From Candidatus Thorarchaeota archaeon (lineage in GTDB: Archaea; Asgardarchaeota; Thorarchaeia; Thorarchaeales; Thorarchaeaceae): a stretch of DNA of 22,304 nucleotides. Of the stretch, positions 8,374 to 22,304 are shown one piece after another. The translations under genes were made by a program, and so were the position numbers. How positions within the stretch are numbered: position 1 is the first letter of the stretch; the number at the start of each line of letters is the position of its first letter. The notes under the pieces were generated by a model, which saw only the letters and a program-made list of their open reading frames with translations, was not told where the DNA came from and did not search any database. The stretch spans positions 1-22,304 of the forward strand of contig RDNZ01000031.1 of the NCBI GenBank assembly GCA_011364905.1, in the 5' to 3' direction.

Positions 8374-9060
8374 TCACATAACATCATGAAGAATAGCATT
8401 TCCATCCTTACCCACTTTCCTCAGAGTCCTCATTATTCGTAGGCAGTACGTCAGTCTCTGAGAGAGTCGTCGAGAGATTCCTAATGCCTCAGCAAGGTCA
8501 GAGTTTTTGAAAGGCTTTTCAAGCGAGTCCGGGATGAAATGCAGGAAGTCAGTTGGCTTTTCATAGAGCCTTCTATCTGTGACCTCGAGCAGTCTGTGGT
8601 CCACAATGCTCCACCCCCTCCTTCGCCAACTTCCCTTTCCATCTTGATGGCGGATTTCTTCCTCTTCGATCAATAGGACTTCTATTGAGAAGTTGGAGTG
8701 CGTTATGAAATTAGGAATTCTCACAAGCTCATCGAATAAGTCCTCAAAAGCTCCTCTCTTTGGTGACAATCTGCGACTTAATTGAGTCGTTCCATCTAAG
8801 GTTTCTTTCAGAATCCATTTTTTCTTTGGTATTGGATAGACGAGTCTGATTGGATGGTTTTTCATTAAGGTGCGAAGCTTGTCCTTGATTGCTGCGAAAT
8901 TCCGGGTTTGGATTTCAATTAGTAGGTTGTTTCTGACGACATCTACGACGTATCCTTCCACCACAACCTCAGCTTTAGCGCCACCTGTCGTATAGAGGTC
9001 TTTCAGACTGGCGTGAAGAGACCCCTCCTGCAAAGTTCCTATGACTGGGCTATTTGACAT
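8374..9060 (-). CDS. Putative PD-(D/E)xK nuclease-fold protein with C-terminal wHTH
   Basis: EGSLHASLK...E...VVDVVRNNLLIEIQ (D...EIQ pattern); C-terminal FKNSDLAEALGISRRLSQRLTYCL; GGTGA SD upstream. Confidence 0.65.
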   Translation of the reverse strand: MSNSPVIGTLQEGSLHASLKDLYTTGGAKAEVVVEGYVVDVVRNNLLIEIQTRNFAAIKDKLRTLMKNHPIRLVYPIPKKKWILKETLDGTTQLSRRLSPKRGAFEDLFDELVRIPNFITHSNFSIEVLLIEEEEIRHQDGKGSWRRRGWSIVDHRLLEVTDRRLYEKPTDFLHFIPDSLEKPFKNSDLAEALGISRRLSQRLTYCLRIMRTLRKVGKDGNAILHDVM

Positions 9061-9079
9061 TCAGCTTCACCAAAGCAAA

Positions 9080-9541
9080 TCAGAGGTGTTTCGTCCAAAT
9101 AGATGCGTCACTACTGGGATAGAGTGACTCTATAGATGCAACCTCTTTGAACTTGTTTGCAATGTAGAATTTGCGCGCGATTTCATTATTGTGCTCCATA
9201 AAAAGTAGAATTACACGTAATTGATACCCCTGAGTTTTGTAGTATTGTGTAGCTTCATCTATCATTGCCTGAACTAGTTGTTTCCCAACTCCTTGACGCC
9301 TAAAATCAGCAGTGACACCCAAGCCAATCATCTCCACGACGCCATCATCTAAACCACCACGCGCCTCCCAGCTGGCAGTTCCGCAAATCACATTATTTTC
9401 AACTGCAAGCAGCGTGTTATACCTAAGTACCAGATCATTTGCGAATTGCTGGGCGCGCTCCGCATGATTCTCAATCTCGGTTCTATACATCGTTTCGAGT
9501 GATGGGATGTCAGCTCGTTTGGCAGTTCTGATTCTCATCAA
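9080..9541 (-). CDS. GNAT family N-acetyltransferase
   Basis: IRTAKRAD start, motif A LGVTADFRRQGVGKQLV, motif B NEIARKFYIANKF. Confidence 0.92.
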   Translation of the reverse strand: MMRIRTAKRADIPSLETMYRTEIENHAERAQQFANDLVLRYNTLLAVENNVICGTASWEARGGLDDGVVEMIGLGVTADFRRQGVGKQLVQAMIDEATQYYKTQGYQLRVILLFMEHNNEIARKFYIANKFKEVASIESLYPSSDASIWTKHL

Positions 9542-9591
9542 TACAACCTGACAGACTCTCTCAAGTCACTCATATCTGTTGTTCGCTTTTA

Positions 9592-10371
9592 CTACTCGAT
9601 AATCAAAATTGCATCGACATAGAGATCGTATTTCTCATCCTCATCGATGTTGTAGATTTTCGCCTTTTCTACCTCGCCCTCTCCAAGAACCTCAAGTAGT
9701 CTGGATTGATACAGAACCTTGACATTAGAGCCGGATAGTCGTTCAGCAAGCTCCGGACTTATTACGAGTGTTTCATCCGGGGTCAGCAGAATCACTCGGT
9801 CCGTAACCTCTGTCAAATTAATAGCAGCATCTACTGATTCATCCCCTGAATAGAGCACTATAGTCCGTTTGTTCTTGAAATCATTGGGATCTTTTACAGT
9901 GAGATAGACGCCTTTGCTGAGAAACTCATCCTTCCCAACGAGGCATTCGATTTCCTCTTCTACTTCTTTCTTGTCATCAGGAACTTCTTCGCCTTTCCTT
10001 CTACGGTAGCTCTTGATTGCCTCATGCAGAGCATCAGCTGCCAAATTGGAACAGTGCATCTTTATCGGAGGAAGACCATCCAACTCTTCAGCAACATCTC
10101 GACGTGTCAACTTCATAGCCTCATCAAGACTCATACCCTTGACCATCTCGGTTGTCATGCTCGTTGTCGCTATCGCTGATCCACAACCAAAGGTCCTGAA
10201 TTTAGCATCAGTGATGGTGTCACCATCGATGCGGATAAAGACCTCCATGATATCTCCACAAGTTGGATTACCAACCTTGCCTACCGCAACGTCATCTCCT
10301 TCAAGGGTCCCTACATTACGTGGATTGCGGAAGTGATCCAATACTTTTTCACTATATTTTGTTGATTTCAT
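9592..10371 (-). CDS. iscU: IscU/NifU Fe-S scaffold fused to a degenerate thioredoxin-reductase NADPH-binding domain
   Basis: YSEKVLDHFRNPRNVG, GNPTCGD, FGCGSAIA, LPPIKMHCS (three Cys plus His, LPPxK); extra C-terminal domain of about 115 aa with a TrxB-like pattern. Confidence 0.92.
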   Translation of the reverse strand: MKSTKYSEKVLDHFRNPRNVGTLEGDDVAVGKVGNPTCGDIMEVFIRIDGDTITDAKFRTFGCGSAIATTSMTTEMVKGMSLDEAMKLTRRDVAEELDGLPPIKMHCSNLAADALHEAIKSYRRRKGEEVPDDKKEVEEEIECLVGKDEFLSKGVYLTVKDPNDFKNKRTIVLYSGDESVDAAINLTEVTDRVILLTPDETLVISPELAERLSGSNVKVLYQSRLLEVLGEGEVEKAKIYNIDEDEKYDLYVDAILIIE

Positions 10372-10383
10372 TTTCTATCATCT

Positions 10384-11547
10384 TTACTTGGATTTGTATA
10401 TTGGAGACAGTTTTCTTAGTCGCGAGACCACATTTGGCACTGCTTCAAGTGCTTTATCAATGTCATCATCTGTGTTGAATCTGCCCGATGTCAGTTGAAG
10501 TGAGCCATGGGCTTCTTCATGGAGTAGTCCTGTTGCGATGAGTGTGTGTGAAGGCTCAAGAGTCTTTGATGTACAAGCGGAACCCGTTGAAACTGAAACC
10601 CCAAGATCTTTGAATGAAAGCAGAATCGATTCTCCTTCGATTCCATCAAATCTAAAGTGCGCGTTAGAAGCTAAACGGTTCGTTGGATGACCATTGAGAT
10701 GGCTGTCAGGGACTTCTTCTAGAACCTGTTTAATCATCCTGTCACGATAACCCTGTAACCGCTTTACTTCGGAGTCCATTTCCTTCTGCACTATCTCCGT
10801 TGCTAAGCTCATTCCAACTATTCCTGGTATATCCTCACTTCCAGACCTCAAGCCTCTCTCCTGCCCTCCTCCAATAATCATGGGATTGACTCTGTACCTT
10901 TTCTGCATGTACATTACTCCCACGCCTCTTGGTCCATAGAAGTCATTTGATGAGAGTGCCATGAGATTGATGTTGTCTTTTCTCACGTCAATTGGAAGAA
11001 GTGCTTCTGCTGCGACTGCATCAGTATGGAATGCTATCCCTCTCTCAGCTGCGAGTTTTCCAATCTCATTGATCGGTTGAACTGTGCCAATCTCGTTACT
11101 TGCCATTCCGACAGATATCAGAATTGTTTCATCTCTTATTCGTTGTTCAATTTTCCCTACATCTACCATGCCATATTGGTCAACAGGAACCTTTGAAATC
11201 TGGAATCCCTCTCTTTCAAGATACTTGGCGATGTTGTGAATCGAAATGTGTTCTACTTCTGATATGATAATATGATTCCCTTTGGTCTTGTTCCGAAATG
11301 CATAGCCCATTATTCCTAGATTGATTGCCTCTGTGGCTCCTGATGTGAAGATGATTTCATCCTCATCGGCATTTATGTACTTGGCAATTTTCTTTCTGCT
11401 TTCTTCCAGAGCATCGGTTGCTACGTCGCCCACTTTATGCAGAGATGATGGGTTCCCAAAATCCTCCGTGAAGTATCTTGCCATCCCCTCGACTACTCTA
11501 GGATCGACTGGTTTCGCGCTCTGGTAGTCTAGATACACCTGTTTCAA
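10384..11547 (-). CDS. iscS: IscS/NifS-family cysteine desulfurase homolog lacking the PLP Schiff-base Lys
   Basis: YLDY, FGNPSSLH, FTSGATEA, EH, NEIGTVQP, GGGQERGLRSG, STGSACTS (Cys retained); SSNDFYGPRG replaces the canonical S(A/G)HKxYGPKG. Confidence 0.93.
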   Translation of the reverse strand: MKQVYLDYQSAKPVDPRVVEGMARYFTEDFGNPSSLHKVGDVATDALEESRKKIAKYINADEDEIIFTSGATEAINLGIMGYAFRNKTKGNHIIISEVEHISIHNIAKYLEREGFQISKVPVDQYGMVDVGKIEQRIRDETILISVGMASNEIGTVQPINEIGKLAAERGIAFHTDAVAAEALLPIDVRKDNINLMALSSNDFYGPRGVGVMYMQKRYRVNPMIIGGGQERGLRSGSEDIPGIVGMSLATEIVQKEMDSEVKRLQGYRDRMIKQVLEEVPDSHLNGHPTNRLASNAHFRFDGIEGESILLSFKDLGVSVSTGSACTSKTLEPSHTLIATGLLHEEAHGSLQLTSGRFNTDDDIDKALEAVPNVVSRLRKLSPIYKSK

Positions 11548-14690: not shown

Positions 14691-16541
14691 TTAGTCATCC
14701 ATGTACGGGTCTTCATCAATATCGATGTCTGCGTAGCCAACATCCCTCAATAGGTCTTCAATCGACTCAGCTCCAGTGACCCATGAGAGTGCCCATTCTC
14801 CATCATCGTGGAGATTCAATTCCACATCCGGGAGGTCTCCGAGCAGGTTGTGGTCCATCTCTATAGTATCTTGATATGCTCCTGCAAGTGCTAGGACAAA
14901 GCAAGATCCTCGAACATTCCCAAGATTACCAACTGGAATCCCATCGCCCATCATGCCCCCGGGTGTTGTCAAGAGCCTATTGTCCTTGGTAAACCATACG
15001 CTATCTGTATGTGGTCGATAAAACTGAGTTATCTCACCATCGGAATCGCATGTTATGTCCACGAGCCGGACAGTGGTTTGTGGTTTCACATGGAGATCAC
15101 TAATAGGAAGAACTGGAAAATGCTGTTGTACCAAGACGTGGTCAGCGACGCTGTTAAAGACACTGAAGTTACCGATTACAATGTGCTCCGGGCGCCAAAA
15201 GTTTCTGAGAAGACCATCAATCTCATAGGACTTTAGATTCAATTCGACAAGTTTCGATCTCACTGCATCCTCAAGAGTCCCTGTTATCATCTCTTGCTCA
15301 AAGATGAATTTCATCCCTTTCAGATTCAAACCGCCATATTTCTCATGGAATTCGTTCCAAATCTCTCGAAGGTTTTCCAAAGTGGAGGCTTCCTTGATTC
15401 TTTCGAGGGTTGGTTTGACATCCTCTTCAGAGACTTCTGAAATGCTTCGTTTCTCAGGCGACGGAAAGATTGATCGCACTTCGAGAGCCTCTACAATGAC
15501 CATGGATGCAAGTGCTGTGACACCTCTACCCGACTCTATCATGATGTTTGGTGGTGGATGTTTTCTCCCTATTTCGGAGAGTTGCGACTTCACTCCCGAC
15601 ACGAGGAGATGTGCATATTGATACATCAGATCTGGTGTAAGCGAGCTTGTATAGTCAATTGCTAAGCCTCCTCCGAAGTCAATACTTGCAAGCTCAGTTA
15701 ATCCGAAATCCCGAAGTTCAGCATAGAATTGCGTTAGAAGCTTTCCAAATCTCTCGAAGGCTTCAATCTCAGTTATTTGTGAACCTGCATGGGCAAGGAT
15801 GGTTTTGACTGAACTGGAGAAACCGCTTTTTTGTAGCAGTTCGACAACATCATAGAGGTCATGAATACTCAGGCCAAACTTGGAGTCTCTTCCAGTGGAA
15901 TGCGACCAATGTCCTTGCACACTCAGATATGGCTTGATTCGCAGCACAAGGTTGGTTTCATCAGGCTTGAAGCGCTCAACAATCAAGCTGAGTTCATGGA
16001 CCGACTCCACCGATATGGCTATGTTGTATCCCTCATCCACACACTGTTTGATCAACTTCAGATACTCGACGTCCTTGGCGCCATTGCATACAATGGGCCT
16101 ATGCTTTTCACTCTCGATGACATGTTTGATGAGGAGGAGCTCCGCCTTTGTCCCTGCTTCCAGCCCATAGTCTGAGTCTGAGCGAATGACTGCAGTGACA
16201 CAGTCTTTCCGTTGATTCACCTTCACGGGATAAATGCCTATGAAACTACCCGCATATTCAAGCTCGCTCATTGCACGATCGAATGCCGCCCTTAGTTTCT
16301 TGATTTGATATGTGATTAGCTGTGGCACACGCAAGGTAAACGACGAGGTATAGCTCGGGGCGTTTCCATTCATTTGCTTTATTCTCTGAATGATTTCTTT
16401 GAAAGTGATGAACTTGTCACCAAGTATTAGAGAGAGGTCTCCATCTTCTGTGATGTCCAGAAAGTGGAGGTCATTACGGTTTACGCCATAAATCCATCGC
16501 GAGTCATCTAGTGACCAAGTTTCTTCTACCAATAGATTCAC
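14691..16541 (-). CDS. speA: Biosynthetic arginine decarboxylase (PLP fold-type III, SpeA-like)
   Basis: YPVKVNQ (PLP Lys), GLEAGTKAEL, CNGAKD, SKFGL, HAGSQI, DFGGGL, ESGR, NFSVF, DITCDSDG, GAYQ, HNLLG; start may be TTG 16532 after AGGTGA. Confidence 0.88.
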   Translation of the reverse strand: MNLLVEETWSLDDSRWIYGVNRNDLHFLDITEDGDLSLILGDKFITFKEIIQRIKQMNGNAPSYTSSFTLRVPQLITYQIKKLRAAFDRAMSELEYAGSFIGIYPVKVNQRKDCVTAVIRSDSDYGLEAGTKAELLLIKHVIESEKHRPIVCNGAKDVEYLKLIKQCVDEGYNIAISVESVHELSLIVERFKPDETNLVLRIKPYLSVQGHWSHSTGRDSKFGLSIHDLYDVVELLQKSGFSSSVKTILAHAGSQITEIEAFERFGKLLTQFYAELRDFGLTELASIDFGGGLAIDYTSSLTPDLMYQYAHLLVSGVKSQLSEIGRKHPPPNIMIESGRGVTALASMVIVEALEVRSIFPSPEKRSISEVSEEDVKPTLERIKEASTLENLREIWNEFHEKYGGLNLKGMKFIFEQEMITGTLEDAVRSKLVELNLKSYEIDGLLRNFWRPEHIVIGNFSVFNSVADHVLVQQHFPVLPISDLHVKPQTTVRLVDITCDSDGEITQFYRPHTDSVWFTKDNRLLTTPGGMMGDGIPVGNLGNVRGSCFVLALAGAYQDTIEMDHNLLGDLPDVELNLHDDGEWALSWVTGAESIEDLLRDVGYADIDIDEDPYMDD

Positions 16542-16570
16542 CTTTGAAGGGCTCTTTTAACAAGGTCTGA

Positions 16571-18049
16571 CTATCCTTCATCTTCACGAATTGAGTCGAG
16601 CATCCCCTGAAAAGCACGGGCAAGCTCGCCAATCTCATCATCTTTTGCGGTATAAGTCGTGTCCACTTGAAGGTCTCCAGTATCAAGAGGTTTGTCTAGA
16701 ATCCTTGCTGCAGCATTTCTTTCTGCCAGGTCAATGAGATACTGTAATGGCCTAGTAATAGTATTCGAAATGGCAACAGCCGCTATGCCCGCTATCAAAA
16801 TGCCTCCGACTGTAACTAGGATAATATAGGTCGCAGCTTGAGTATTCTGGTTGGCGATACGAGCCTGAAGCAGTGGAATACTTTCTAGCACTTCGTTTAG
16901 CGGGACTGATATCACACAGATGTAATCACCCTTGCCTACTTGTGTGAATACTAGAATATGTTCAGTTCCTCCTCGAGTATATCTGAGGGTTCCTGAGGTT
17001 CCAACGGCTACACTAGTGATTTGGTTGATATTGGCATCTGTCAATGCTGAAGTGAAGTCCGGATTGACCTCCACATTACGAAGATCCGGTAGACCACCAA
17101 TGTAATCCTCATCACTAACCTCCGGATGCGCTACTACACCTCCAGCCGAATCGACTAGAAATGCATACCCGCTCTCCAGAATCTTGACATTGATTACTTT
17201 CTCCCTGATGTCTTCTATGGTGATGTCTCCGGAGATGACGGCAAATGGAATACTGTTTCTATATACCACTCTCCCGATTGAGATTAGAAGCACATTATCG
17301 AATTCATCATAGTATGGTTCAACAAACACCACGTCGCCATTTCCCGCCCAGATTGTCTGATACCAATCTTCTCCTCTTGGGTCATAGGGATTTGCCAATC
17401 TTGCTGGATCAGTAAGCTCTCCAAGAATACTACCTGGATAGTTTATGAATAGTCCATCATCAGCAAAAGCGATGTAGAGCCATCTGAACGCCAACTGATT
17501 GTGTATCGCTTTGAAGATGTAGTCCATATTGGATACCCGTCCAAGTTTGTCGGCATTCGCAGGAATGTCCGCATAGCTTGAATTGTAGTTGACGGAAGTT
17601 GTCCCTGCAACATACCAGCTGCTATAGTCCCATGACACATTCAGGCCATAATTGGGATCATAGTGATTATCGCTTGGCGCAGGAGAAACGCTGTCGTCTT
17701 CGAACAAAAGGTCATAGTATACTTCTCGATAGGCGTATGTTGAGCCGGCATCAAATAAAGCCTCGAGTTCTTCTGCTGCAGCCGCAATCATTCCTTCTGC
17801 ACTGGCCAACTTTTGGTTAATCACTAGAGCGGTCTTTTGAGCGGTTTCATTCATATTCGTTTGAATTTGATTCTCCAGAGCCTGTGAACTCTGGTCTCTT
17901 GTTGAGTTACCTATTAGATTCACAAAAGTCAGTGAAACCAGACCGGTTGCAGTTAATGATACAAGTGAGATTACTAAGAAAGTAAGAATCACATTTGTTC
18001 GGAATTTCCCCTTCTTCTTGGTTTGGGTTGTTGACTGTACCATTCTCAT
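16571..18049 (-). CDS. Membrane receptor-like protein TM-dCache_1-TM-HAMP with no output domain
   Basis: TM1 VILTFLVISLVSLTATGLVSL; dCache motifs YDPRGEDWY, EPYYD, ISGDITI, GYAFLVDSAGGVVAHP; TM2 YIILVTVGGILIAGIAAVAI; HAMP ITRPLQYL...DEIGELARAFQGML then stop. GGAGGTG SD at 18052-18058 (ATG 18049 or 18043). Confidence 0.88.
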   Translation of the reverse strand: MRMVQSTTQTKKKGKFRTNVILTFLVISLVSLTATGLVSLTFVNLIGNSTRDQSSQALENQIQTNMNETAQKTALVINQKLASAEGMIAAAAEELEALFDAGSTYAYREVYYDLLFEDDSVSPAPSDNHYDPNYGLNVSWDYSSWYVAGTTSVNYNSSYADIPANADKLGRVSNMDYIFKAIHNQLAFRWLYIAFADDGLFINYPGSILGELTDPARLANPYDPRGEDWYQTIWAGNGDVVFVEPYYDEFDNVLLISIGRVVYRNSIPFAVISGDITIEDIREKVINVKILESGYAFLVDSAGGVVAHPEVSDEDYIGGLPDLRNVEVNPDFTSALTDANINQITSVAVGTSGTLRYTRGGTEHILVFTQVGKGDYICVISVPLNEVLESIPLLQARIANQNTQAATYIILVTVGGILIAGIAAVAISNTITRPLQYLIDLAERNAAARILDKPLDTGDLQVDTTYTAKDDEIGELARAFQGMLDSIREDEG

Positions 18050-18059
18050 CGCACCTCCT

Positions 18060-20933
18060 TTAATAATCGGTAGTGGTTCCTCCAACCTCCATTTGTGCCA
18101 TTAGCACTCCGACTTTCTCAAATGCTCTCTCAATATCTAACCGAACATTTGTGCTATCAACCACAGAGATGTACTGCCCCTCCGGAATCCCTTCACATAT
18201 AGATTGCAGAAGTTCCTCTGTGGTTATTGGTTGCCCTGTGGTGCCTGATCTGATTCTTTTATCAGTGTCCGCTCTATTATTGAGTTCCTGCCCAACACCA
18301 ATGATCAGTAGATTGACATCCAAATGATGGTCTCGAATGAAGCCCTCGATTGTCAGTGGTCTCTTTCTTTTCATTCTGTCCTTTTCTGTGACAATACCCT
18401 CAAGAACATCCAAAGAGTACCTCTTTGAGCTGTTGTCTTGGCCATCAGTCAAAGCGATGACCCATCGATGCTCGCTTGATTCAATCCTCTCAAGCTCTTC
18501 AAGTGCTCGGCCAAGAGCATCATAGAATGCAGTGGCGTAGTTGGGATATTTCAGAGATTTCAATACTCTAACAATTTTATTCTCCTCATCTTCACTCTCT
18601 CCCTTGATTGTCAGCGGAAGCAATTCTCGATAGGATGAGTTGAATACTATCACTGACACTTGATCCTGCGGATTGACTTGAGAATGAAGTATCTCTAGGG
18701 CTCCTCTAACAGCCGCTCTTATCCGATTCTGAGCCTGCATACTGCCTGAATAGTCAATCACGAATGTGACACTCTTTCTGAACATGATTGAGCGCCGCAG
18801 TTTCTCAGCTTTTCGTCTGACTTCATGACTTGGCTCGTTACGCTGGTCAAGAACATCTGCCAGCCGCTGCAACGCATAAACAACCAGCCAGAGCTCATCA
18901 GTGTCTTGACCGAGTCCGATTGCTTCGTTATATGCCCCTTCTGCCTTCTTCCATTTTCCTTGAACCTGATTCAACTCACCTTCATGAAATTGGATATAGG
19001 CAAGGCTTCTGATATAGTCAATCGATTTTGCTATCTCTTTTGCCTCATTGAATCTGGATTGAGCTTGACTGTAACGTCCATCATGCATCAGTACAAGTCC
19101 CATCGCGTCGAAACGTTTTGCTAGACCATACTGATTCTTTAATGTCCGGTCGATGGCTTCAGCATCTTCTAGGAGCTTCATTGCCTTATCGGCGTGTCCA
19201 CGATCCATCTCAACAAGTGCCATGTTATGATAGAGAGAAGCTATTCTTTGCATTGCGTCTCTCTCATCTGCACCCTCTTCCTTAGTTCTCTGTAGAATTC
19301 TCTGTGCGATGGCCATGGATTGTGAATAGTAATCCATTGCATTTCCTGTATCGCCTCTTTGCCTGAACACATTTCCAATGTTGAGGAGCATTGTCTGCTC
19401 TCCAACATCGATTTGAAGTCGTCTACTTATTTCAAGCAAATTCTGGTAGTTTGCCAACGCCCGATTAAGGTCGCCGCGAATGAATGCCTGGTTGCCAAAT
19501 CGCGCTGCTTCTTGAAAACTAAGAAGCGCATCAACCGTGGTACCCACTTCTTCATACATCGCCCCTGCTGCTGTGATTCCTCTCGTGAAGTCTTGACGCG
19601 CCATTTTATTGACAAGACGAGTCATCTCAGTGATTGGCTCAATCACCGCATTGGCTCTTCTATAGGAAGCAGCGGCTACAACTCCTGCGACCATCGCAAG
19701 AACAGCTCCTAAAGCAATAGTTAGAATTAACGTCTGTGCACCCACAAGATGAAGCATATTGCTTGCTGGAGCAATCACATCCGAGTCGGGAACAACAATG
19801 GCTAGTATATACTCCGTATTCGTGATATTGGCAAAGGCCATATGCCATGTTTGTCCATTCTTTTGGAATTCCAGCTGACCTGCTTCATAGACCAGAACGT
19901 TGGAGTTGAGTTGATTATCGAACTCGATAGCCTCAGGACTTGTTGTGCTCCCGAATTCCAAAGTTTCAATGGGGAGGGGATCATCAAAAACACCAAGATC
20001 TGGGTGTGCAACTACGACACCGTTTCTATCAAGTAGATATGAATATCCGTTGTCCAGTACGTCGAGGTTCAACACTTTTTGGTTGATTGTTGCCATAGTC
20101 ACATCTGCAGACACAACGCCAATCAGTGTTCCATCGTCGAATCTGACTGGTCTTCCCATGGAGATGACTAGACCCACTGATGGATCAACATATGGCTCCG
20201 TGAAAACAACGCTGTTATCACTGGGATCTTGTGCTACCACATTTGTGTACCAGTCTTCTGCATTAGGGTCATAATCTTGCGCAGGTGGGACTGGATTTCC
20301 ATCTTCATCCTGCTGGAAATAGATGAGGTTGTCAAATGGATAGTTTCTGAAGAGATGTTGGTCGGATATGTTAAGGTCGAATCCCATGTATAGCCATCTG
20401 TAATCCTCATTCATTTGATGCAGAGACCTGAAGATGTTGACCATGTTGGATGAAACGTCCAGAGCATATTGTGTTCCAGGTGAGAGATCATGCGGGTCGT
20501 TATTGTTCCATGCAAAACGCGGCATGTAATAACAATCAGTTTGAAACGTGATATTATTTGAAAAATAGGCCTCGACAATACTAGGGTCTGTTTCAAAGGT
20601 GAGATCCCCCCAGTTGGGCTCTTCTAGGGGGTCCCAATAATAGCTGTACTGCGCCGTCGCATTTATCCGTTCATTGAACAAGTCTTCGCAGTAAGCCTCC
20701 ATCATATAGACGCCATCTACGTAGTTCTGCCATCTCTCTTCAATGAATAGACTTGTGTCATTAGCAAGTCTCATGAGATTAGCTAATTCTTCTGTCTTCA
20801 GCTCCCCTGCAGCATCGGATGCGTTTGCATTTGACAGGTCGTTTATTGCGAGTATCGATAATGTCGAAATGACCAAAATCGGGATTAGTGCAACGGTGAC
20901 GAATGTGATTACTATTCTTTTTGAAATCCTCAT
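18060..20933 (-). CDS. Membrane receptor TM-dCache_1-TM-HAMP-TPR-VWA
   Basis: TM1 IVITFVTVALIPILVISTLSIL; YDPNAEDWY, TEPYVD, VVSADVT, GYSYLLDRNGVVVAHP; TM2; HAMP VIEPITEMTRLVNKMARQDFT...EEVGTTVDAL; about 5-6 TPRs; VWA with DYSGS, ATAFYDAL and LTDG (complete MIDAS). Confidence 0.9.
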   Translation of the reverse strand: MRISKRIVITFVTVALIPILVISTLSILAINDLSNANASDAAGELKTEELANLMRLANDTSLFIEERWQNYVDGVYMMEAYCEDLFNERINATAQYSYYWDPLEEPNWGDLTFETDPSIVEAYFSNNITFQTDCYYMPRFAWNNNDPHDLSPGTQYALDVSSNMVNIFRSLHQMNEDYRWLYMGFDLNISDQHLFRNYPFDNLIYFQQDEDGNPVPPAQDYDPNAEDWYTNVVAQDPSDNSVVFTEPYVDPSVGLVISMGRPVRFDDGTLIGVVSADVTMATINQKVLNLDVLDNGYSYLLDRNGVVVAHPDLGVFDDPLPIETLEFGSTTSPEAIEFDNQLNSNVLVYEAGQLEFQKNGQTWHMAFANITNTEYILAIVVPDSDVIAPASNMLHLVGAQTLILTIALGAVLAMVAGVVAAASYRRANAVIEPITEMTRLVNKMARQDFTRGITAAGAMYEEVGTTVDALLSFQEAARFGNQAFIRGDLNRALANYQNLLEISRRLQIDVGEQTMLLNIGNVFRQRGDTGNAMDYYSQSMAIAQRILQRTKEEGADERDAMQRIASLYHNMALVEMDRGHADKAMKLLEDAEAIDRTLKNQYGLAKRFDAMGLVLMHDGRYSQAQSRFNEAKEIAKSIDYIRSLAYIQFHEGELNQVQGKWKKAEGAYNEAIGLGQDTDELWLVVYALQRLADVLDQRNEPSHEVRRKAEKLRRSIMFRKSVTFVIDYSGSMQAQNRIRAAVRGALEILHSQVNPQDQVSVIVFNSSYRELLPLTIKGESEDEENKIVRVLKSLKYPNYATAFYDALGRALEELERIESSEHRWVIALTDGQDNSSKRYSLDVLEGIVTEKDRMKRKRPLTIEGFIRDHHLDVNLLIIGVGQELNNRADTDKRIRSGTTGQPITTEELLQSICEGIPEGQYISVVDSTNVRLDIERAFEKVGVLMAQMEVGGTTTDY

Positions 20934-20973
20934 CTATTTTCCACCACTTCCATGAAAATAATCATAATCAATG

Positions 20974-22304
20974 CTAGCTGCTCCAGTTTGCTAACTCCTC
21001 CAACAATTTCCTTTGGAAATCATCGATATCCTGTTTCTCTTCCAGGATAAACTCATCTCCTGAGAGTGATCCCTCTACAGATCCTTCACCAAGAAGAATA
21101 ATTAGTGTCCGCCGCAAGATTCGACGATCCACACCAGTTTCTTGTTCAAGTTGCCGAACATCTAATGAATTCGTACCACGCAGTAGGTTACGAAGAGTTT
21201 CAGGTACCTTCTGAATGCTTTTTCTCGAGGGTGCAGGTATCTTCTTTTTCTTTGTCGATTCTGTTCGTACGAACATGTTTCCATCAATATGTCCCTCTAT
21301 CACATCACTTTGAATCATCGCTTGAAGACTACGCCGCAAGTTGTATGCCGCCGGTCTAGGCAGAGTCCGTCGCAGAATTCGGTCGAGGTCTTTGAGCTTG
21401 ATTCTGTTATGTTTCGATGTTATTGAATCAATGCTCTCTTGGATGTACTCCTCGATCACGTATTCTTCAATCATCTCCAGTTGAGCTCCACATGATGGAC
21501 AAGTAGAAGCTTCTGGTGATGTCGGAGCCCCGCAGTTTCCGCATTTGATTGCTCTTCTGTAAAGAACTGTCTTCGTTGAACTGATCTGTTGGAGAATTAC
21601 TTTGTCAGTCCTTGTGACCTTTCCAGACTCCTGCACTTCCCAAAAGCTGAGTTTTCGATCTTTTGTGCTCAATACAAGAAATGCGACATCCGATATGTCA
21701 TCTGGAACTCCCGTAGCCATGGCTCTTGGTGTATCTCCTATATCTAGTCTATCAACCTCATTTCCGTCAAGGTCCCAGATTCGAAGAGTTGACGTCTGAT
21801 CCCCAGTTATGAATAAAGTCCGGCTTTCAAATGAGAGTACGGCAAAAACTGTAAGATGCGACCCCAACTGCAATTCTTTGAGCTGGTATCCAGCTGCCGT
21901 TAGAACAATCACCAGCCCAGTTTTGTCAGCAACTACAATCTCCAGTTCTGAGTCTTTTGTTATATCCTCTAACCAAACATCTGCAATTGGATTTCGCATC
22001 GTCCTCGTAAAGATTGCATCTGTATCATCATTGTAAAGGATCAATCGGTTGTTTTGTAGCCCTACTGCAACCTCAGCTGCATCATCTCCATCTATATCTC
22101 GCGCATCACATGCCACTACATTGCTCTCCAATCTGATATTCCAGACTGGGGTCCCACGATGATCGACTACCAATACCTTCTTCCCGACGCCCCCTACAAG
22201 GGCATCTTTTCCCTCACCTTCTACATCAGCAACAGCAATACATCGGACTTTGCTGCTCCACTTTCGGGAATCCCTCAACATTCCCTTTGCATCAAAAACC
22301 CTCA
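20974..22304 (-). CDS. Partial (5' end beyond window): FG-GAP-like beta-propeller + Zn ribbon + two PCI-like winged helices
   Basis: Frame stays open to the window edge (..RVFDAKGMLRD); blades ADVEGEGKDALVGG, RDIDGDDAAEVAVG, EDITKDSELEIVVA, TGDQTSTLRIWD, STKDRKLSFWE; CGNC-x10-CPSC; two wH-like segments ending VIEGHIDGNMF and SVEGSLSGDEF. Confidence 0.75.
   Translation of the reverse strand, partial: RVFDAKGMLRDSRKWSSKVRCIAVADVEGEGKDALVGGVGKKVLVVDHRGTPVWNIRLESNVVACDARDIDGDDAAEVAVGLQNNRLILYNDDTDAIFTRTMRNPIADVWLEDITKDSELEIVVADKTGLVIVLTAAGYQLKELQLGSHLTVFAVLSFESRTLFITGDQTSTLRIWDLDGNEVDRLDIGDTPRAMATGVPDDISDVAFLVLSTKDRKLSFWEVQESGKVTRTDKVILQQISSTKTVLYRRAIKCGNCGAPTSPEASTCPSCGAQLEMIEEYVIEEYIQESIDSITSKHNRIKLKDLDRILRRTLPRPAAYNLRRSLQAMIQSDVIEGHIDGNMFVRTESTKKKKIPAPSRKSIQKVPETLRNLLRGTNSLDVRQLEQETGVDRRILRRTLIILLGEGSVEGSLSGDEFILEEKQDIDDFQRKLLEELANWSS

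Follow-up and report, generated by a model that had tools for sequence, protein, structure and literature searches.

In almost all prokaryotic transmembrane receptors known to us, the chain terminates in an enzymatic domain or in one for chemotaxis signalling. A locus in a genome of Thorarchaeota (Asgard) raises the question of how two receptors that carry neither could pass on a signal, and to what. Within the analysed stretch of DNA (22,304 nucleotides, hereafter the window), four genes were found, all on the minus strand and separated by gaps of 40, 10 and 29 nt. They are g1 (20974–22304), encoding a soluble β-propeller/Zn-ribbon/tandem winged-helix protein; g2 (18060–20933), encoding a receptor of 957 aa with the order TM, dCache_1, TM, HAMP, TPR and VWA; g3 (16571–18049), encoding a TM-dCache_1-TM-HAMP protein without an output domain; and g4 (14691–16541), encoding a putative SpeA-type PLP-dependent arginine decarboxylase (ADC). 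The likely start of g3 is the ATG at 18049, 10 nt past the stop codon of g2, which is directly followed by AGGAGGTG and then by this ATG. The four co-directional genes with short gaps described in the initial annotation were confirmed. Its statement that the cluster contains no kinase, response regulator, MCP, GGDEF or cyclase domain also held in Pfam and NCBIfam searches of g1–g4, which gave no MoxR domain either.

Based on the results given below, we suggest, with a probability of about 55%, that the cluster is the Thorarchaeota version of an Asgard receptor module without enzymatic output, in which amine sensing by g2/g3 would act through the TPR-VWA arm and the propeller protein on agmatine and polyamine synthesis.

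Domain organization of the receptor pair

The g2 protein matched the Pfam families dCache_1 (63.9 bits, cut-off 45), TPR_12 (54 bits) and VWA_2 (53.3 bits), and hydropathy placed its TM segments at about residues 7–29 and 400–422. Its paralogue g3 (~29% identity) matched dCache_1 (61.7 bits, cut-off 45) and HAMP (30.8 bits, cut-off 25), has TM segments at about residues 18–47 and 403–432 by hydropathy, and terminates straight after HAMP. In family f12, HEAT repeats are added to g3. According to the hydropathy profiles, the N terminus of g2 and g3 is inside, the Cache domain is outside, and the HAMP, TPR and VWA parts are cytoplasmic.

Along g2 (minus strand), the extracellular dCache_1 domain (19749–20846), whose ligand pocket was mapped against PctA, is followed by the second TM helix and a HAMP-like linker (19500–19748), a cytoplasmic TPR array (18789–19499) and a cytoplasmic VWA domain (18063–18788). 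The initial annotation had assigned a dCache-HAMP architecture to both receptors. This stands for g3, but in g2 of the window Pfam itself calls no HAMP; the domain is called in an orthologue from f14 (E 2.2e-4) and in a Cache-less form of the receptor (35.7 bits), and none of 35 sequences deviates at the HAMP hallmark positions Pro433 and Glu462. The invariant TPR residues R478, N481, N518, N521 and N570 might line a peptide-binding groove. A VWA domain with an intact MIDAS had also been proposed, and the motif (D727-x-S729-x-S731 ... T801 ... D830) was indeed found to be invariant in 35 sequences from 10 families.

Three known systems share parts of this layout. Bacterial dCache_1-HAMP receptors for amino acids and amines (PctA, PctB and PctC of Pseudomonas aeruginosa, and the dCache_1AA and dCache_1AM sensor classes) have the same topology of two TM segments with an extracellular double Cache and then a cytoplasmic HAMP, and the top sequence matches in the PDB included PctA (5LTX, E 6.8e-12). 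Unlike in the Pct receptors, the output here is TPR plus VWA or none, instead of an MCP, kinase, cyclase or phosphatase domain; furthermore, the carboxylate-binding Arg is replaced by Glu, and the paralogues are encoded as an obligate-looking pair. BatA/BatB-type proteins of MoxR/Bat operons likewise combine a membrane-anchored VWA with TPR, and NCBIfam gave a faint BatC TPR match. Unlike in Bat operons, there is no MoxR or DUF58 neighbour here, the partner is a propeller protein, and the two domains come in the opposite order, preceded by a Cache sensor and HAMP. Finally, the alpha2delta calcium-channel subunits and CACHD1 also contain dCache_1 and a MIDAS VWA in one polypeptide, and a sequence comparison of the g2 Cache domain with the PDB retrieved CACHD1 (8S7C, E 2.4e-7). 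In alpha2delta the VWA precedes the Cache and both are extracellular, whereas the g2 VWA is cytoplasmic and comes after HAMP-TPR, with a membrane helix between it and the Cache.

The propeller protein and its predicted docking on g2

The reading frame of g1 continues past the last base of the window (22304) into a scaffold gap, a stretch of N, and comparison with orthologues indicates that only ~39 N-terminal residues are missing. The protein was modelled via an orthologue from the genome G002, which is 85% identical (pLDDT 84.3, pTM 0.79). Hydropathy detected no TM segment in g1, and such segments are absent from all g1-like proteins checked. The β-propeller (21631–22304, minus strand) corresponds to residues 40–263 of the full orthologue. 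It is followed by a Zn ribbon (CGNC...CPSC, 21478–21546; Pfam Zn_Ribbon_1, 24.8 bits, cut-off 25), all four Cys of which are invariant across 29 g1 orthologues, and then, in the structure models, by tandem winged-helix domains and a C-terminal helix (21043–21456).

The propeller model contains 24 strands, which fits six blades. Its Pfam matches were weak (Beta-prop_ACSF4, Beta-prop_CGLA, BBS2_Mid), and Foldseek returned generic propellers; BBS2, BBS7 and ITFG2-type propeller models match as well, some of them above the cut-off in a relative. No FG-GAP match was obtained with Pfam for g1 of the window, and FG-GAP_3 reached only E 2e-4, below the cut-off, in a relative from f25. An integrin-type propeller, to which the initial annotation had drawn a comparison, was rejected on the strand count (six blades, not the seven of integrin-alpha/FG-GAP) and the generic Foldseek matches. 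The PCI-like partner of that annotation fared no better, since g1 has no Pfam PCI match and no helical-repeat half, and a propeller and a Zn ribbon precede its winged helices. The PCI and integrin analogies hold only at the fold level.

The first winged helix of g1 gave fold matches to the winged helices of eIF3-PCI, cullin WHB, CSN7 and UFL1/DDRGK1 at Z 8–9.6 (for the PCI and cullin types, Z 8.3–9.6, rmsd 1.9–3.0 Å and 69–70 aligned residues), while the DNA-binding winged helices of MarR, NiaR and Rok matched at about Z 7. The winged helices of g1 could bind DNA or protein, and the fold matches do not decide between the two. As a sub-variant of the preferred reading, Thorarchaeota g1 might be a membrane-held transcription factor: TPR-VWA would sequester the propeller, the ligand would free g1, and the Zn ribbon and winged helices would bind the ADC or HDAC promoters. 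We regard this as unlikely. The presence of a Zn ribbon with two winged helices, the matches to MarR, NiaR and Rok, an ESM-atlas neighbour cluster with Zn_Ribbon_1 and HTH_24 (score only 0.81) and the divergent placement of g1 and an HDAC-family gene, with ~190 bp between them, are consistent with such a factor. However, the best winged-helix matches are of the protein-binding PCI, cullin and UFL1 types, and no Pfam HTH family was detected in g1. The propeller is the sole part of g1 that is conserved in other families, where the C-terminal regions differ; a Pfam scan of five such g1-like proteins detected neither a winged-helix nor an HTH family, which rules out DNA binding as the conserved mechanism.

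Engagement of the propeller protein by TPR-VWA, the central claim of the initial annotation, was approached by modelling the cognate G002 pair, residues 470–957 of g2 with residues 1–268 of g1. One complex prediction passed, weakly: the median score was 0.58 (runs 0.54, 0.58 and 0.64) against 0.00 for the best control. Without a good prior, a pass in this score range is more likely to be false than true. In these runs the contact agreement was at least 65% and the partner pLDDT at least 83. In the benchmark, 58 of 80 solved complexes and 2 of 110 mismatched pairs reached the pass mark, and scores of 0.60 or lower comprised only 7 of the 80 solved complexes and both passing mismatched pairs; these counts are only roughly valid here, as the alignments were our own. 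The models weakly suggest that the propeller docks on the TPR-VWA arm of g2. An integrin head likewise joins a propeller and a MIDAS VWA-like domain, and here a propeller gene and a MIDAS VWA are genomically linked, with a weakly supported predicted contact. Unlike in integrin, the g1 propeller fits six blades and not seven, has no significant FG-GAP match and lies, as does the VWA domain, in the cytoplasm; the likeness is one of fold.

Genomic neighbourhood and conservation among Asgard archaea

The receptor block sits between the ADC gene and the HDAC-family deacetylase gene from which g1 diverges. In Thorarchaeota genomes without this block, the ADC and HDAC-family genes are directly divergent. 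The upstream flank, in which the initial annotation had suggested looking for a MoxR ATPase or a kinase, was inspected. No MoxR AAA+ (AAA_3) gene was found among the genes scanned on the 31.7-kb contig, nor any MoxR among the neighbours scanned at related loci; AAA_3 matches in the window genome occur only on the contigs C23, C68 and C17. The nearest kinase is encoded by a PAS-HATPase gene 3.4 kb upstream of g1 on the opposite strand, with the HDAC-family gene and a methylase gene in between. It lies near the cluster in only some genomes of the genus, at varying positions, and was not seen at the loci examined in other families.

The order g2 then g3, with a gap of 2–13 nt, was fixed at 28 loci from 10 Asgard families, although such locus counts overstate the support because related genomes are not independent. 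A g1-like propeller gene adjoins the pair in six families in three different arrangements: upstream of g2 in f1; downstream of g3 in f9, f25, f26 and f27; and convergent in f18. This adjacent gene is the only g1-like match at E<=1e-8 in the majority of these genomes, among them that of Ca. Lokiarchaeum ossiferum (6.0 Mb). Among 135 genomes of f9, g2 was found in 18, g1 in 17 and both in 15. The propeller partner postulated by the initial annotation is a member of the cluster in six families, but none was found beside the pair in 4 of the 10 (f14, f20, f12 and f5). The ADC gene adjoins the pair in five families and two arrangements. It is adjacent and co-directional in f1, f14 and f20, follows g3 co-directionally in one f5 genome (G049), and is divergent in f18 and in another f5 genome (G050); it is absent from f26 and f9. 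Neither ADC nor g1 is a universal component. A Cache-less form consists only of a TM-HAMP-TPR-VWA protein, a 148-aa TM-HAMP protein and a propeller protein. What the two receptors have in common in this form is TM-HAMP, which is thus the shared working part of g2 and g3.

The possibility that the cluster is a conserved gene order of the genus without functional coupling was also considered. The whole 20-kb neighbourhood is syntenic within the genus, including the unrelated NifS, ADH and M24 genes, as this would predict. It is contradicted by the other families, where g2-g3, the propeller gene and ADC remain neighbours at 30–40% identity in spite of differing arrangements and flanking genes, and we consider it very improbable. 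The neighbourhood conservation which the initial annotation had proposed to check was found across Asgard families, and because the linkage persists despite rearrangements, it supports a functional unit and not a chance neighbourhood. A pattern scan of 185,579 species genomes retrieved 90 relatives, all of them Asgard records, and a literature search found no paper on this system, in agreement with the earlier remark that no prokaryotic system with this layout was known to have been described.

The Cache pair might also serve as an ordinary front end for sensing, with the signal relayed by a conventional, unlinked histidine kinase, chemotaxis proteins or a MoxR ATPase. TPR-VWA would then dock that enzyme, and the propeller and ADC genes would be loosely related neighbours. 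VWA-TPR proteins work with MoxR in Bat-type operons; MoxR-type AAA+ genes are present on C23 and C68, the PAS-HATPase gene lies 3.4 kb from g1, and among the families with the pair, several lack g1 and several lack ADC. We nevertheless find this rather unlikely. No kinase, response regulator, MCP or MoxR gene adjoins the pair at the loci annotated across the 10 families, and the propeller gene, unlike that of the PAS kinase, stays adjacent through three arrangements.

Arginine decarboxylase, ligand pocket and proposed mechanism

The fourth gene, named an arginine decarboxylase in the initial annotation, encodes a SpeA-like protein. The g4 protein aligned over its full length with solved SpeA structures from C. 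jejuni (3NZP, E 7.6e-59), V. vulnificus (3N2O) and E. coli (3NZQ), with E values from 7.6e-59 to 5.5e-51, and shares their catalytic motifs: the PLP-Lys motif YPVKVNQ, the GGGLA and ESGR motifs and the Cys of CDSDGE. Unlike SpeA, g4 scored just under the NCBIfam equivalog cut-off of NF003763 (351.8 against 369 bits) and also below that of TIGR01273 (345.5 against 624 bits), and its gene is embedded in a receptor operon. It is the only arginine decarboxylase detected in the window genome (80.8% complete); a pyruvoyl ADC was not detected there, and an agmatinase-family gene lies on contig C41.

The g2 pocket residues Y221, E226, W228, Y229, Y248 and D277 correspond to Y121, R126, W128, Y129, Y144 and D173 of PctA, and the g3 pocket also reads Y, E, W, Y, Y, D. 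In amino-acid sensor pockets this Arg binds the carboxylate. The six PctA residues constitute the dCache_1AA motif (Gumerov), which g2 and g3 fail at one position: five of the six residues are kept, and Arg is changed to Glu. The mapping covered the positions that the motif of the dCache_1AM amine sensors shares with this one; the published AM motif further comprises an upstream insertion with a paired Arg and Asp. Among the archaea, the published dCache_1AM set includes only Halobacteriota. At the position of PctA R126, the ADC-adjacent Cache domains examined have Glu or Asp in 19 cases, Gln, Ser or Tyr in 6 and Arg in none. The ADC-less, Lokiarchaeum-type f26 clusters have the canonical Y-R-W-Y-Y-D in 6 of 6 domains, matching the dCache_1AA motif, and Arg is likewise present in g2 of the second copies of G100 and G088, which lack ADC. 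Loss of Arg does not require ADC: it is also seen in the clusters of f9, f25 and f27, which have no ADC. The ADC linkage, of which the initial annotation made little use, and the pocket change together point to amine sensing, and the paired g2/g3 receptor is probably amine-sensing, as judged from one pocket position and the neighbouring gene.

There is another explanation, in which the propeller, the TPR alpha-solenoid and VWA form a membrane-anchored scaffold (for example, coat-like, cytoskeletal or for surface attachment), the Cache domains serve for extracellular binding or anchoring, and ADC is a co-transcribed housekeeping gene, with no signalling from ligand to gene. All cytoplasmic parts (TPR, VWA, the propeller and HEAT on g3 of f12) are protein-protein interaction domains; moreover, there are matches to BBS2, BBS7 and ITFG2-type propellers, some above the cut-offs in a relative, and the first winged helix of g1 resembles those of PCI, cullin and UFL1. 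Such a scaffold appears improbable, as HAMP domains convert signals and their hallmark residues do not vary here. In addition, the Cache pockets keep a near-complete small-ligand motif, which is canonical in the Lokiarchaeum-type copies, and the ADC linkage survives rearrangement in five families, which is unexpected of a passive housekeeping neighbour.

Returning to the preferred reading of a receptor module without enzymatic output, we suggest the following course of signalling. The g2 and g3 proteins would pair via their TM and HAMP segments into one receptor with a single scaffold arm. Ligand binding outside the cell would change the hold of the TPR-VWA arm on the soluble g1 propeller adaptor, which in Thorarchaeota also bears a Zn ribbon and two winged helices. 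A decarboxylated amine (for example, agmatine, putrescine or another polyamine) is the probable ligand, because the pockets keep the amino-group contacts while Glu replaces the carboxylate-binding Arg. The output would be the control of agmatine and polyamine synthesis, either transcriptionally via g1 or directly on ADC.

Asgard archaea are the closest known prokaryotic relatives of eukaryotes. In a bolder and much more tentative form, the module may represent enzyme-free Asgard signalling, in which a heteromeric Cache receptor acts via HAMP on a rigid TPR-VWA(MIDAS) arm that reversibly docks a BBS2/ITFG2-like propeller adaptor with cullin/PCI-like winged helices. It would then rely on scaffold recruitment, as eukaryotic receptors do, and not on phosphotransfer or second messengers, and would have been re-tuned from amino acids to amines for polyamine control in Thorarchaeota and the Heimdall group. 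The receptor family described here has no terminal domains other than protein-docking ones, and a soluble protein serves as its dedicated partner. If the mechanism is true, receptor signalling by recruitment would have a prokaryotic example and, in the regulation of agmatine and polyamine synthesis, a concrete physiological read-out. Ca. Lokiarchaeum ossiferum, which is in culture, carries the module and so allows it to be tested directly, and the ectodomains and cytoplasmic arms are also standard candidates for expression, binding studies and structural work.

Organization of the four-gene operon

Four co-directional genes, g1 to g4, were found on the minus strand at positions 14691–22304 of the window, which covers bases 1–22,304 of a 31.7-kb contig in a 3.08-Mb genome (80.8% complete). 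The intergenic distances of 40 nt (g1–g2), 10 nt (g2–g3) and 29 nt (g3–g4) agree with the closely spaced gene set described in the initial annotation. Based on Pfam, g1 (20974–22304) encodes a beta-propeller and a Zn ribbon. A run of N directly after the window (L002:~1405–1550, on the same contig) is a scaffold gap inside g1; by comparison with orthologues, the N terminus lacks only about 39 residues. The 957-aa product of g2 (18060–20933) contains dCache_1 (63.9 bits), TPR and VWA domains. The product of g3 (ATG at 18049, end at 16571) contains dCache_1 (61.7 bits) and HAMP (30.8 bits), the latter lying near the protein end with only a few residues beyond it. By hydropathy, the receptor topology is classical: the N terminus and the HAMP, TPR and VWA domains are cytoplasmic, and Cache is extracellular. 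The g2 stop codon directly precedes AGGAGGTG and the ATG of g3, which suggests that translation of the two genes is coupled.

The last gene, g4 (14691–16541), encodes an arginine decarboxylase (ADC) of the SpeA type. It scored 351.8 against NF003763 (cut-off 369), and its full-length alignment to solved SpeA structures retained the PLP-binding lysine and the active-site motifs. A scan of the operon for bacterial-type promoters and terminators, a method not applicable to archaeal promoters, gave results close to the shuffle expectation.

Conservation of the module in Asgard archaea

A total of 400 Asgard genomes were searched with ADC, g2 and g1, and 40 loci were read closely. At the genus level the entire region is syntenic, which by itself carries little information; the informative comparison is that across families. 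Gene neighbourhood conservation, a check put forward in the initial annotation, held beyond the genus: g2 followed by g3, with a gap of 2–13 nt, was constant in 28 loci from 10 families, with identity to the g2 of the window as low as 24%. A gene for a soluble g1-like propeller adjoins the pair in six families, lying upstream of g2 in Thorarchaeota (f1), downstream of g3 in families f9, f25, f26 and f27, and after g3 in convergent orientation in f18. In most such genomes, including that of Ca. Lokiarchaeum ossiferum B35 (complete, 6.0 Mb), it was the sole match at E ≤ 1e-8. Within f9, either gene (g1-like or g2) was present in only about 13% of genomes and both in 15; these relatives are non-independent, so the co-occurrence does not amount to a formal test. 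ADC adjoins the pair in five families. In f1, f14, f20 and the f5 genome G049 it follows g3 in the same direction; in f18 and another f5 genome, G050, it stands ahead of g2 in divergent orientation.

Neither of the accessory genes is a constant part of the module. ADC was absent from f26 and f9, and no g1-like gene was found adjoining the pair in f14, f20, f12 and f5, profile search included; the g1 profile gave either no match in f20, f14 and f12 genomes or only partial FG-GAP-like repeat matches far from the cluster. The linkage of g2–g3, propeller and ADC has outlasted inversions and rearrangements of gene order amid changing flanking genes, a pattern that usually marks functionally coupled genes.

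Some neighbours are family-specific. In f20, a small AbrB/MazE-like gene precedes g2 (L030:4945–5310; also L039 and L040). In two f14 genomes, a small RING-finger gene lies closely upstream of g2 (L020:10959–11306 and L041:2441–2716; zf-RING_2 in L041 at 30.5 bits, above the cut-off), co-directional in one genome and divergent in the other.

A pattern scan of one genome per species (185,579 species) returned 90 relatives, all Asgard, although the pattern was narrow and absence elsewhere is not implied. Run against 1.84 billion representative proteins, HMMER gave 47 clusters at E ≤ 1e-30, and among the matches listed a few dozen proteins match as one stretch over HAMP-TPR-VWA. These include distant relatives (L146, L149 and L148; proteins P0377, P0283 and P0296). 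Some lie on low-GC contigs (24–28% GC) in reversed order, with the g3-like gene before the g2-like one, and one of them has a UniRef name derived from a "viral metagenome"; a 1613-aa form (GCA_013565615.1) has two Cache-like regions ahead of TPR and VWA. A search of the literature on Asgard receptors, Cache, VWA signalling and arginine decarboxylase revealed no paper on the module, in line with the initial view that no described prokaryotic system with such a layout was known. The sensor half belongs to a receptor type already known; no description appears to exist of the output half or of the three-part organization.

Receptor gene pair and putative propeller partner

One Lokiarchaeia family has a Cache-less module, in which a 577-aa two-TM-HAMP-TPR-VWA protein is accompanied by a 148-aa two-TM-HAMP protein and a propeller protein of about 600 aa (L025:3224–7292, L029:4054–8238 and L032:3938–7349; about 577 aa, about 150 aa and 354–609 aa across these loci). 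Since this form keeps the two-TM-HAMP protein, TM plus HAMP is the invariably retained portion of g3, and the sensor domain can be swapped. HAMP domains act as dimers; the simplest arrangement would therefore be one in which g2 and g3 pair via TM-HAMP to form a receptor with a single scaffold arm. In 35 g2 sequences, MIDAS residues D727, S729, S731, T801 and D830 of the VWA metal site, Pro433 and Glu462 of HAMP, and R478, N481, N518, N521 and N570 of TPR are invariant, which suggests that a metal-dependent contact is conserved, and possibly a peptide-binding groove in the TPR array. In f12, g3 has a C-terminal Zn ribbon and HEAT repeats (HEAT_2, 116 bits; L044:293–2290 and L045:2700–4655), and a second copy in the genome G100 has a Zn ribbon behind the HAMP (L053:3063–4697).

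The complete g1 orthologue of the genome G002 (85% identical to g1 of the window) was modelled with a pLDDT of 84.3 and a pTM of 0.79. In the model, a 24-strand propeller compatible with six blades is followed by a helix, the Zn ribbon, a pair of winged helices and a further helix at the C terminus. At the sequence level, members of the family match BBS2_Mid, BBS7-propeller and ITFG2-type models; such matches exceed the cut-off in an f25 relative alone. The propeller is not of the integrin (FG-GAP) type. Foldseek with the whole model returned only generic propellers (NHL, WD40, BBS2 and KICSTOR chains) without discrimination. For the C-terminal half, sequence and profile searches against the PDB gave nothing under E 0.09, and the ESM-atlas yielded only sub-threshold leads of 0.81 or lower. 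Modelled alone (pLDDT 76.9), its first winged helix resembles those of eIF3 PCI subunits (Z 9.6), cullin WHB (9.3), CSN7 (8.3) and UFL1/DDRGK1, with DNA-binding winged helices next at Z of about 7; in such models the gap between protein-binding and DNA-binding folds is too narrow to settle the function of g1. The PCI-like assignment was not upheld: there is no Pfam PCI match, and unlike PCI proteins, g1 has no helical-repeat half.

The proposal that the VWA/TPR arm engages the propeller was addressed by one complex prediction for the cognate G002 pair (g2 residues 470–957 and g1 residues 1–268). The median score was 0.58 (runs of 0.54, 0.58 and 0.64) versus 0.00 for the best control, a verdict of "weak support", with at least 65% of contacts in agreement between runs and a partner pLDDT of at least 83. 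Of 80 solved complexes, 58 reached the pass mark, as did 2 of 110 mismatched pairs; only 7 of the solved complexes, along with the two mismatches that passed, lie at 0.60 or lower. For g2–g1 these counts are a rough guide only, since our own alignments were used. Given the strong genomic prior, this weak score nudges upward the odds that g1 docks on the g2 arm, binding itself not being established.

Conventional transducers were not linked to the module: as initially noted for the cluster, no kinase, response regulator, MCP or cyclase gene, nor a MoxR gene, was detected in the loci examined. A rival, less probable explanation is that the signal is relayed by an unlinked transducer. The upstream flank contains a gene for a cytoplasmic PAS-PAS-HATPase histidine kinase (L002:3740–5206, plus strand), on the strand opposite to g1 and 3.4 kb away from it; only some genomes of the genus have this kinase gene close to the cluster, and its position there varies.

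Ligand pocket and polyamine context

The g2 and g3 pockets were mapped via HMMER alignment onto PctA, the dCache_1 amino-acid receptor of Pseudomonas aeruginosa. Both have Y, E, W, Y, Y and D at the positions of Y121, R126, W128, Y129, Y144 and D173, so that, unlike known dCache_1 amino-acid sensors, they carry Glu (E226 in g2) in place of the carboxylate-binding Arg. This Arg was found in none of the 25 ADC-adjacent Cache domains examined (Glu/Asp in 19, Gln/Ser/Tyr in 6). The canonical amino-acid motif was present in all six domains of the ADC-less f26 (Lokiarchaeum and Promethearchaeum), and the Arg also in g2 of the second, ADC-less copies in the genomes G100 and G088. The correlation between Arg loss and ADC is imperfect, because Arg-less and more degenerate pockets were also found in the ADC-less families f9, f25 and f27.

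A search for a pyruvoyl-dependent arginine decarboxylase (PF01862) found none in the genome (80.8% complete), and one arginase/agmatinase-family gene is located elsewhere (C41:11529–12347); on this basis, polyamine synthesis probably begins with g4. Just past the window, divergent from g1, lies an HDAC-family deacetylase gene (L002:1565–2665, plus strand; Hist_deacetyl, 249.5 bits), possibly encoding an acetylpolyamine amidohydrolase. The receptor block is thus situated between ADC and the HDAC-family gene. In Thorarchaeota without the block these two genes are directly divergent (see also L137, L138 and L142), so that the block looks to be placed inside a polyamine-metabolism gene pair.

The C-terminal "D-P-Y-hydrophobic" tail of ADC was considered as a ligand of the TPR groove or MIDAS and dropped as not specific: it is conserved in receptor-linked ADCs and also occurs in the receptor-less G388, G390, G360 and G359b. 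The f5 genome G051, in which the receptor pair was not found, has two tandem SpeA-like ADC genes (L135:5643–8267 and 8645–10402), one extended to 874 aa, both without the "DPY" tail. In f20, ADC is followed by a second PLP decarboxylase of about 480 aa, LysA/ornithine-lysine decarboxylase-like (L030:11585–13027; also L039 and L040).

Taken together, the pocket change, the ADC adjacency and the polyamine gene context would be explained most economically if the ligand were agmatine, putrescine or another polyamine and the output of the receptor were the control of ADC.
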